From a virus (taxonomy: Duplodnaviria > Heunggongvirae > Uroviricota > Caudoviricetes), in IMG/VR virus record IMGVR_UViG_2537562191_000049: a stretch of 39,777 nucleotides of DNA; one strand, 5' to 3'. Positions within the stretch are counted from its first letter, which is position 1. Every line of letters begins with the position of its first letter. The translations under genes and the position numbers were made by a program. This document shows positions 3,451 to 5,115 of this stretch, piece after piece. The notes under the pieces were generated by a model that made no database searches, was not told the DNA's origin, and worked only from the letters and a program-made list of their open reading frames with translations.

Positions 3451-3672
3451 TTAGTTATCAAAAAGTCCGTAAGTTTCTTCTTCTTCAGGTGTAAGGGGAA
3501 GAATCTCTACTCTATCTATAGATACCTTTTCAATGTACCCATGAGGTCTACTTAAAATTAAAGCTCTCTCATGCCACAGAACTCCAAGAATGTGATACCT
3601 TCCAGCATCTCCTTTTACCCTGGCTCTTCCTTTGATTCTTGGCGGCATAATGCCATATCTTTTCTTTGCCAT
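3451..3672 (-). CDS. Hypothetical protein (73 aa), last gene of the antirepressor operon
   Basis: ORF with ATGA start/stop overlap with the upstream gene at 3672, implying translational coupling; no recognisable motif. Confidence 0.45.
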   Translation of the reverse strand: MAKKRYGIMPPRIKGRARVKGDAGRYHILGVLWHERALILSRPHGYIEKVSIDRVEILPLTPEEEETYGLFDN

Positions 3673-4400
3673 TATGCAACATTGCTCCCATGAATCAGGT
3701 GTTGTAGTGCTTTAACACCCTCCGCATTGTAGCGGAATGCTTCCACCTGTTTGCTTGAATGCGCAGATTTATCCAAGAAGAACTTCCCGTACTGCTCAGT
3801 TTTGAGGTTGTTTGCGTTAGCAATGCGACCAATCTTGTTGGCCGTTACTCCAAGCTGCTCTGCAACCTCCCCTGCTGAGTAGTAATGCTCTTCTATTGCC
3901 GGAAGAGGTATTGCATTAAAACCAACGAGCGGGTTGATTATGCTTGCTGCCGCAGTCTGCTTTGCTTCCGGCGCAAGATTTGGCATCAAATCGAACAGAT
4001 TGGTAACAGCTTCAACCGTCATTTTCAATGTTCGCGCCTGGCGATACTCAACAAGTCCACTCGACGATTTACCGCTTTTAATGTGCGCTTCTTGCATACT
4101 TTCAAGTTGGTCTACAAGTGAACGGCGAACAGCTTTAGATTCACGAGCAGCCACTCGAAGGGCTTGCTTAATTGACATAACAACTTTTTCAGAAGTTGTC
4201 TTGTTTGATTTTTGAACTACGAAAATTTCGTAGTGCTCACCTTCAAGTTCATCCTTAATGCGTGCAATAAAGTCGTTATTGCGGACTTCTTTTTCCCCGC
4301 GCTGTCTACGAGCATGATTGACCATCTCTAACAGGTACTGGCTATCAATGGTTTTATCCGTGACAACGGATCCGATGTTTGCTACATTCTTAAAAGTCAT
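3672..4400 (-). CDS. Antirepressor-like protein (KilA-C/ORF6C-type C-terminal domain)
   Basis: Start moved to internal ATG at 4400 (MTFKNVANIG...) which has SD aaggaa; C-terminal segment ...AGEVAEQLGVTANKIGRIANANNLKTEQYGKF... resembles antirepressor C-terminal domains. Confidence 0.55.
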   Translation of the reverse strand: MTFKNVANIGSVVTDKTIDSQYLLEMVNHARRQRGEKEVRNNDFIARIKDELEGEHYEIFVVQKSNKTTSEKVVMSIKQALRVAARESKAVRRSLVDQLESMQEAHIKSGKSSSGLVEYRQARTLKMTVEAVTNLFDLMPNLAPEAKQTAAASIINPLVGFNAIPLPAIEEHYYSAGEVAEQLGVTANKIGRIANANNLKTEQYGKFFLDKSAHSSKQVEAFRYNAEGVKALQHLIHGSNVA

Positions 4401-4488
4401 TAGGCATTCCTTATGTGGTAGTAAGGGTGTGACATAGGCCGCCAGCAGCACACTGGCGGTTTTCTTTTTGCGCCGTCCGGCGCACCAA

Positions 4489-5115
4489 TCAATGAATCCA
4501 TTCCTCGCCGCGCAGTTTTGCCAGCATTGGCTGAGCGTTCTTTACGACAAAATTATTGGTATCAAGATTCTTCATTTCACGAAGAAGTGATTTCTTGGTT
4601 TCTTCTGACATGTAGCGAGTCTCATATGCAATATCGTAAATCCTTCCAGAAAGCTCAGAACCAATTTGCTTCATTCCTGGGTAGATGTGTTTGCACATTT
4701 GTTGACTCTTCTCCATCCACAATTGTAAGTAGCAGAGATTAACCAGCTCTTCGTCAGTAAACTGTTTTGCAATCGGTGAGCATTCTGCCTGCCGATCCAA
4801 AATATCCAGCACCCAGCGGCGGAACTCTTTGGCTACCGGAGTGCGAGCAAACATCGCGATTAGGTGGGCGCCGCGTAGTGAGAAAACTCGCACTTTTTTG
4901 CGATAATTTCCTGAGGTACTCACTTCGAGTACCTGAGTCATTCCGGTGCTAAACTCATCGCTATACTTGTTATAAATCATTGTTACTGCACGGCTATTTG
5001 CATATTTAAGTGCAGATGCAATATTAGATGACGTAAACCAAACACCATGCATATCACGGGTGGGCACCAACTCAACTCCGTGGAAGTTGTAATCTGATTT
5101 TGCTACAATATTCAT
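4489..5115 (-). CDS. Antirepressor with Bro-N/KilA-N-type N-terminal domain
   Basis: Start moved to ATG at 5115 (MNIVAKSDYNFHGVELVPTRDMHGVWFTSSNIASAL...) with SD aggaaa; Bro-N-like N-terminus typical of phage Ant proteins. Confidence 0.65.
   Translation of the reverse strand: MNIVAKSDYNFHGVELVPTRDMHGVWFTSSNIASALKYANSRAVTMIYNKYSDEFSTGMTQVLEVSTSGNYRKKVRVFSLRGAHLIAMFARTPVAKEFRRWVLDILDRQAECSPIAKQFTDEELVNLCYLQLWMEKSQQMCKHIYPGMKQIGSELSGRIYDIAYETRYMSEETKKSLLREMKNLDTNNFVVKNAQPMLAKLRGEEWIH

Follow-up and report, generated by a model that had tools for sequence, protein, structure and literature searches.

We analyzed a window of 39,777 nucleotides (nt), the virus record IMGVR_UViG_2537562191_000049 (Caudoviricetes), which is a P22-like (Lederbergvirus) prophage of Escherichia coli O111:H8. 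A minus-strand operon in this window contains two tandem antirepressor-type genes, here called ant (4489-5115) and the second gene (3672-4400), followed by an open reading frame (ORF) of 73 amino acids (aa), orf73. We concluded that the locus is a variant of the P22 immunity I region (immI), not a new kind of system. In the reading that we prefer, to which we assign a probability of about 0.55, it is an immI-type module with doubled output: two independent antirepressor-type proteins would be made, each under the control of its own antisense RNA, sar1 for ant and sar2 for the second gene. What we observed is the gene order, the domain content and homologies of the proteins, the conservation of the pair, and the conservation and covariation of both antisense elements.

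The locus lies between homologues of P22 genes 16 and 9, in the segment from an ejection-protein gene (minus strand, 6370-8235) to the tailspike gene (minus strand, 1109-3046). In P22 the counterpart slot is occupied by sieA, mnt, arc, sar and ant. Casjens and colleagues named this slot the hypervariable "ant moron", with ten types among sixteen genomes, and described it as a hot spot of unrelated cargo such as the sieA and hkc genes (PMC2629481). The operon here reads, on the minus strand, from a small gene in the arc position through ant, with Bro-N and P22_AR_C domains, and the P1-Ant-like/winged-helix second gene to orf73. Chromosomes of E. coli O111:H8 matched the 3.1-kb region around the locus at 100% identity, with the prophage adjoining dacD and sbmC, and phage JEP4 matched it at 95%. 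A sequence-only reading of this stretch had placed ant, the second gene and orf73 here; all three were found on the minus strand as it had placed them, and RefSeq and the JEP4 record annotate them at the same coordinates. Its proposal of two distinct Ant-type modules in one operon also held, as both genes belong to the Bro/KilA/Ant class by homology and their pairing is conserved.

The product of ant was searched against Pfam. Bro-N (PF02498) was found at aa 23-105 (42.5 bits against a cut-off of 25.6), and KilA-N (PF04383) gave no match at E≤0.1, so that of the Bro-N/KilA-N-type N-terminus proposed earlier the Bro-N part was right and the KilA-N part was not. The earlier reading had overlooked a second domain at aa 117-184, P22_AR_C, which P22 Ant has at its C-terminus (54.4 bits against 22.4). 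There was no match to P22_AR_N, whereas P22 Ant itself scored 149.7 bits. Similarity to P22 Ant was confined to the C-domain, with 29% identity to aa 206-274 of P22 Ant. The protein was 77% identical to those of SPN3UB-type Salmonella phages (KK-2013, S107), and SPN3UB carries the ant segment at 94% DNA identity, annotated as Ant. An Ant of a Shiga toxin (Stx) phage with the same C-terminal region as P22 Ant promotes efficient induction (PMC3064807). By analogy with P22 Ant, the product of ant would inactivate a repressor of the CI/C2 type.

The second gene was more difficult to assign. Its product matched no Pfam family at E≤0.1, and among 28 members of its family neither ANT/KilAC (PF03374) nor ORF6C was matched in any member at E≤10; the only signals at that threshold were weak ones to HTH_17/HTH_31 near aa 171-196. 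Alignment with P1 KilA by hhalign gave a probability of 0.5%, and with an ANT-containing Morganella protein the N-domain alone aligned. Searches of Pfam at E≤10, NCBIfam, PADLOC and PDB sequences returned nothing useful for this protein or for orf73. The protein falls in phrog_1726, labelled 'anti-repressor' in PHROGs, and the copy in this prophage is labelled hypothetical in RefSeq. Its family comprises 2097 clusters, nearly all from Enterobacterales, and none of the 120 clusters listed had a Pfam domain. By tblastn against phage records, full-length homologues at 61-67% identity were found in Stx2a-converting phages, where they are annotated as antirepressor; the labels of homologues in phage records were all antirepressor or KilA, but these are inherited names only.

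The clearest relationship was found in the N-domain. Residues 14-106 matched aa 112-206 of P1 Ant1 with 58% identity over 100 aa (E = 2e-30). P1 Ant1 runs on into a Pfam ANT/KilAC domain, whereas the second protein lacks one. P1 Ant1/Ant2 is an established antirepressor that is checked by the c4 antisense RNA (PMC8546580). The N-terminus, which the sequence-only reading had called unrelated, is thus unrelated to Bro-N and related to a known antirepressor. When 1.84 billion representative proteins were searched with a profile, 1194 matches were obtained, many of them to the N-half or the C-half alone. Proteins that matched only the C-half (n = 40) carried at their N-termini Bro-N (13), KilA-N (10), ORF6N (8), Rha (4), P22_AR_N (2) or AntA (1), and 6 of the 19 that matched only the N-half ended in ANT. 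Because these half-only matches carry other domains of the class, both halves of the second protein are interchangeable modules of the Bro/KilA/Rha/Ant class. The KilA-C/ORF6C-like C-terminus suggested earlier was therefore correct as a kind of module and incorrect as a family assignment. In a Foldseek search against PDB the C-domain again appeared as a winged helix-turn-helix (wHTH), and the N-domain had no analogue. The two tandem proteins had no direct similarity to each other, which ruled out a duplication.

Regulators with Bro-N, KilA-N, ORF6N, Rha or AntA domains and interchangeable C-domains (ANT/KilAC, ORF6C, P22_AR_C) were reportedly described by Iyer, Koonin and Aravind in 2002. Both proteins of the locus resemble that class in being built of two modules; all of these heads are found in front of the C-domain of the second protein, and the head of that protein is found before ANT. 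They differ from it in that neither half of the second protein has a Pfam model and, in sequence, its C-domain belongs to neither ANT nor ORF6C. Three points suggest an antirepressor function for the second protein: its homology to P1 Ant, its membership in a class of shuffled domains and the sar-like control described below.

Both intergenic gaps of the operon hold hairpins that terminate the plus strand only. The gap between the arc-position gene and ant, together with the first ant codons, aligned with P22 sar position by position. The promoter of sar1 lies inside the 5ʹ end of ant, with a -35 element GTGGAA at 5080-5085 (GTGTTA in P22 sar) and an extended -10 element TGcTACAAT at 5101-5109 (TGCTACAAT in sar1, TGCTATACT in P22 sar). 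Common to both elements are ATTCATG, TTACTGACA, and the hairpin GAGGCCC...GGGCTTC followed by a run of U. The sar1 RNA was predicted to fold at -35.1 kcal/mol (z = -6.2 against shuffled controls), and in an alignment of 14 sequences including P22, 6 of the 14 predicted pairs of its stem showed compensatory changes. By this comparison, sar1 is a diverged homologue of P22 sar. The Rfam sar model (RF00262) gave no match in the window at E≤10, though it scores P22 at 97.8 bits, and at both antisense elements Rfam returned only sub-threshold matches to SymR and Hrs13. Our own covariance model of sar1 scores 80.5 bits on sar1, by construction. This model also gave a weak match on the plus strand at 30974-31052 (18.8 bits, E = 0.23), where a GC-rich hairpin followed by a run of U lies beside the immC region, antisense to the 3ʹ end of the ORF at 31001-31366, in a position reminiscent of lambda oop RNA.

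We examined 18 loci that have a full-length homologue of the second gene, and for the second element 17 of them were compared with the window. Five of the 18 were public contigs (Klebsiella, Morganella, Serratia) and 13 were species-level genome loci from Serratia, Buttiauxella, Pantoea, Citrobacter, Proteus, Erwinia, Kluyvera, Dryocola, Intestinirhabdus, Atlantibacter and others, about 15 genera in all. The promoter of sar2 lies within the first 14 codons of the second gene, with a -35 element GTGACA (4360-4365), a spacer of 17 nt and an extended -10 element TGcTACATT (4380-4388). Transcription is predicted to start near 4395, and the terminator hairpin at 4436-4462 is followed by TTTTCTTTTT. 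The arrangement GTGACA-17 nt-TGnTAnAnT plus a hairpin with a T run was present in 18 of 18 sequences (the window and 17 loci). Over codons 5-14, which the promoter spans, the amino acids vary and the promoter nucleotides are invariant: among the 17 sequences with tabulated codons, codon 6 reads GTA or TTA in all, codon 7 ends in CA (xCA), and Val13 is encoded by GTC throughout. The hairpin has 9 pairs, 4 of them with compensatory changes in 17 sequences, and no pair of the core 7 was broken. The sar1 covariance model does not detect sar2, and we therefore call sar2 an analogue, not a homologue, of sar1. From these comparisons, sar1 and sar2 are both predicted to be transcribed.

We also considered whether the hairpin at 4436-4462 serves only to stop transcripts of the convergent mnt homologue. 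This was judged less likely, since loci with the Arc/Mnt-type gene on the opposite flank of the module still conserve both the hairpin and the promoter paired with it. At 4470-4487 in the same gap, just past the sar2 terminator, there is a second short GC hairpin (GCGCCGTCCGGCGC). It recurs in several, not all, of the homologous loci and may mark a recombination boundary between the two modules.

The pairing of the two genes was consistent across the loci. A Bro-N or P22_AR_N gene was found directly upstream of the homologue of the second gene, on the same strand, in 18 of 18. When the upstream proteins of 17 loci and the window were scanned, 17 had Bro-N and one had P22_AR_N, and half carried P22_AR_C; the eighteenth locus, from Klebsiella (L007), has a Bro-N plus P22_AR_C gene upstream too. 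The divergent regulators scanned (n = 15, those of the 13 genome loci together with the S24-like repressor and the Mnt homologue of the window) included 10 of Arc/Mnt type and 2 with helix-turn-helix (HTH) and S24 domains. The cassette was found in P22-like prophages and, in siphovirus-type prophages, between the tail genes and the tape-measure gene, and because of these two settings it behaves as a mobile module. In other phages the slots that follow arc are filled by different sets of genes drawn from the Bro/KilA class, and such arrays, of two or three genes, seem to be common. One Morganella prophage has three in a row (L011, 2543-4726), encoding an ANT protein, a Bro-N protein and a homologue of the second protein, and in SPN3UB (L004, 3912-5937) Ant is followed by an ORF6N protein and then by a 90-aa ORF that overlaps the ORF6N gene.

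This strict adjacency would also be expected if the two proteins formed one heteromeric, two-subunit antirepressor in the manner of the P1 Ant1/Ant2 heterodimer, and the P1 antirepressor is indeed a two-protein complex (PMC8546580). We regard such a complex, or the split antirepressor that the sequence-only reading had offered as an option, as very unlikely. Each protein is a complete protein of two domains, and each gene occurs alone elsewhere. The Klebsiella phage phiKp_30 carries positions 3242-4510 of the window at 97% identity and has neither the Bro-N gene nor orf73; the Stx2a phage PA2 has the second gene alone, in its early region; and SPN3UB-type phages have the first gene at the DNA identity given above, followed by the unrelated ORF6N gene. 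The two proteins have also diverged separately. In 13 loci, identity to the Ant of the window ranged from 25 to 80% and that of the second protein from 42 to 69%, and the two were uncorrelated (r = -0.37, p = 0.22), with a P22_AR_N head on the partner in one locus and P22_AR_C lost in half. Finally, each gene has its own antisense cassette, with promoter and terminator, and its own intergenic recombination boundary. We favour the view that they are two independent modules that travel together, not two halves of one antirepressor.

Table 1. Features of the immI-type locus and the basis on which each was assigned.
Feature	Position	Strand	Basis
mnt homologue; converges on the operon end, divergent from the tailspike gene	3179-3436	+	Pfam Arc, E = 3.5e-15
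Intrinsic terminator ending the operon	3423-3444	-	8-bp stem with 5 GC pairs, then TTTTCTTTTCT on the minus strand
orf73; accessory 73-aa ORF	3451-3672	-	End-to-end match to phrog_4977
Second antirepressor-type gene; product of 242 aa with P1-Ant1-like N-domain, helical linker and MerR/Xis-like winged-helix C-domain (about aa 165-242)	3672-4400	-	
sar2; predicted cis-antisense RNA against the start codon and Shine-Dalgarno sequence of the second gene	4395-4472	+	Comparative
ant; 208-aa antirepressor-type protein, Bro-N and P22_AR_C	4489-5115	-	Pfam; PHROG anti-repressor Ant families
sar1; predicted cis-antisense RNA against the ribosome-binding region of ant	5116-5192	+	Diverged homologue of P22 sar
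Arc-position gene, first of the operon; 57 aa, probable ribbon-helix-helix protein	5189-5362	-	phrog_10182, full length
Promoter-like site, TTGACT-17 nt-AATAAT; equivalent of P22 Pant	5412-5440	-	Predicted function
Divergent repressor, HTH and S24-like, in the place of P22 mnt	5462-6103	+	Pfam HTH_3, E = 9e-13; Peptidase_S24, E = 1.3e-12

The sequence was consistent with a single operon, as had been proposed, with one good promoter-like site and no convincing sense terminator before the one at 3444-3423. The site at 5440-5412 was the best sigma-70 match within 3000-6400 (10 of 12 positions), and short ACTCA/TGAGT repeats lie between and around its hexamers. A LexA box (CTGT-N8-ACAG with at most 1 mismatch) was absent from 5363-5461, and the count of such boxes in the whole window was at chance level. 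Because its promoter lacks a LexA box, the operon does not look SOS-controlled. The terminator is the sole strong sense terminator and lies right after orf73. The mnt homologue, convergent with the operon, runs at its 3ʹ end into this hairpin and has its stop codon within the loop.

The protein in the arc position gave weak Pfam matches to ParD_like (E = 8e-4) and Arc (E = 0.011), both under the cut-offs, and no BLAST similarity to P22 Arc. Among the 13 genome-scan loci, 10 had an ORF of 53-82 aa in this position, and the contig loci had a gene of 56-57 aa there; those of Klebsiella and Serratia have Pfam Arc matches on record.

The divergent repressor at 5462-6103 was aligned with the immC repressor of the same prophage (31689-32405). 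The immC repressor retains both the catalytic serine and the cleavage site. Where it has the catalytic GDSM, the product of 5462-6103 has GEAM, in which Ser is replaced by Ala, and opposite the QAG of the immC repressor there is no Ala-Gly site. The S24-like repressor is therefore predicted not to cleave itself. The Morganella modules have an HTH and S24 repressor in the same position; one Morganella homologue retains the serine, and another lacks both Ser and Lys. A hydrophobic ORF of 62 aa (6164-6352, plus strand), unannotated, is found just 3ʹ of the S24-like repressor gene, in the slot of P22 sieA. It matched phrog_21338 end to end (E = 5e-45) and could encode a small membrane protein co-expressed with the repressor.

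The Mnt homologue was 47% identical to P22 Mnt over 73 aa (E = 4e-24) and is annotated as 'regulatory protein mnt' in JEP4. It lies at the opposite end of the operon from the promoter expected to be its target, and its own promoter must be in the 130-bp gap that it shares with the tailspike gene. Beyond the tailspike gene, at the dacD end of the prophage, an O-antigen acetyltransferase-like gene (1-1068, plus strand; phrog_3333, E = 6e-101) is probably a gene for lysogenic conversion.

From these features we propose how the module could work. In a lysogen, the operon promoter would be held off by the divergent S24-like repressor, by the Mnt homologue, or by both, and the S24-like repressor, having lost its catalytic serine, would be expected to be insensitive to RecA. 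During infection or late transcription, sar1 and sar2 would each block translation initiation of their own target gene, each from a promoter in the 5ʹ coding region of the target and with a terminator in the gap upstream of it. Separate control of translation would matter because antiterminated late transcription must cross the region to reach the tailspike gene; late transcription would read through both genes on its way, and the architecture thus explains why control at the level of translation is needed. When the proteins are made, for example from an infecting genome, they would bind and inactivate repressors of the CI type, as P22 Ant and P1 Ant1/2 do.

Several points weigh against this reading. 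Antisense transcription, repression by the S24-like repressor or Mnt, the antirepressor activity of either protein and their targets are all inferred, and homology to the core domain of P1 Ant does not prove that the activity is shared. No operators were assigned, as the promoter regions across the modules are too divergent to align. The Rfam sar model misses sar1 and the sar1 model misses sar2, the arc-position protein is only weakly similar to ribbon-helix-helix proteins, and the second protein has no match in Pfam, NCBIfam or PDB sequences. Moreover, the best structural analogues of the second protein are DNA-binding winged helices, so that it could act on DNA and not on a repressor. It would then be a DNA-binding regulator, or a toxic factor of the Kil/Rha type working through its winged helix, and its gene a linked moron gene. 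We consider this alternative unlikely, since the N-domain is homologous to P1 Ant1, and C-modules of the same wHTH type are present in bona fide proteins of the antirepressor family. Antisense control of the sar type is a hallmark of P22 ant, a role that c4 plays in P1, and the labels of the homologues, inherited though they are, point the same way.

Within the preferred reading of two independent antirepressor-type proteins, it is plausible that the two target different repressor specificities, as the sequence-only reading had suggested. A stronger form of this idea is a dual antirepressor cassette, in which the proteins would inactivate different immunity types, namely the resident lambda-CI-like repressor and the repressors of co-resident prophages (for example, Stx phages in enterohaemorrhagic E. 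coli (EHEC) O111), each gated by its own antisense RNA. We consider this form unlikely. If it were true, one prophage could detect or set off the induction of other prophages, or break through heteroimmune superinfection immunity, and sar2 would represent a previously undescribed family of antisense regulators in phages.

The remaining member of the operon, orf73, is a narrowly distributed accessory ORFan. It was found in 8 protein clusters only, all from E. coli or Salmonella. Its place was in each case in a P22-like prophage, where the ant module ends on one side of it and an Arc/Mnt-type gene, itself next to the tailspike gene, lies on the other. Besides phiKp_30, which lacks it and otherwise carries the segment, none of the other modules examined had an equivalent short ORF abutting the stop codon of the homologue. 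An ATGA overlap with the second gene had been reported, but the junction is actually TAATG (GCA TAATG GCA), where the start of orf73 overlaps the upstream stop by 1 nt; translational coupling is possible and unsupported. The AlphaFold2 model of orf73 had a mean confidence score (pLDDT) of 59, which was uninformative and too poor for a fold search. Two candidate equivalents were rejected. The 73-aa icd of P1, which overlaps ant1, has no sequence similarity to orf73, and orf73 lies downstream of its neighbour, not upstream. The gp22 and gp23 of SPN3UB showed no similarity to the second protein and orf73, and gp22 is the ORF6N protein.

The lack of detectable homology or a confident fold for orf73 leaves room for another explanation, that orf73, the second gene or both have an accessory function unrelated to repressor control, such as superinfection exclusion, anti-defence or host modulation. 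The ant moron does host unrelated cargo such as sieA and hkc (PMC2629481). PADLOC gave no defence match of note, and for the second gene the homology and the domain shuffling point to the Ant/Bro/KilA class. We consider this explanation quite improbable as a whole, although orf73 by itself may have such a function.

With P22 immI the locus shares its slot, flanked by ejection-protein and tailspike genes, and it likewise has a small first gene in the arc position, a sar-like element, P22_AR_C and a homologue of Mnt (47% identity). It differs in that the divergent regulator on the promoter side is HTH/S24-like and the Mnt homologue lies convergent at the opposite end. The arc-position protein has no detectable similarity to Arc, the head of Ant is Bro-N instead of P22_AR_N, and the Rfam sar model does not score the window. 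A second antirepressor-type gene, a second antisense element and orf73 are also additional to the P22 arrangement.

The P1 immI operon (c4, icd, ant1/ant2) is similar in the core domain of Ant1/Ant2, to which the N-domain of the second protein is 58% identical, in the control of an antirepressor gene by antisense RNA, and in having a 73-aa ORF (icd) that overlaps ant. However, P1 Ant has an ANT/KilAC C-domain, which was not detected here, and icd precedes ant and has no relation to orf73. P1 c4 is a processed, trans-acting RNA from the same operon, whereas the RNAs predicted here are cis-antisense with promoters inside their targets.

Trans-acting antirepressors controlled by LexA have been described in Gifsy prophages and as Tum of phage 186 (PMC3121763). 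There too, an accessory antirepressor and not self-cleavage of the repressor sets the fate of the prophage, and it can act on the repressors of other prophages. Those antirepressors are small unrelated proteins, whereas the operon here has no LexA box and is apparently controlled by a dedicated repressor and antisense RNAs.

Earlier work had established the immI paradigm, the diversity found in the ant moron and the existence of tandem genes of the Bro/KilA type. Within the literature that we searched, the conserved cassette of arc, ant and second ant genes, the assignment of the second family to the P1-Ant/Bro class, and the second conserved sar-like element appear to be undescribed. The cassette gives a testable function to a large unannotated family (more than 2000 protein clusters, the closest of them without a Pfam domain), and sar2 adds a second, widely conserved sar-like antisense RNA, as predicted here, to the few examples from phages. 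If the two proteins are ordinary redundant antirepressors, the result is mainly a better annotation of a hypervariable phage region. Antirepressors decide whether a prophage stays silent, and where a pathogen is polylysogenic, as EHEC O111 is, they can link the induction of one prophage to that of others, among them those that convert their hosts to toxin production.

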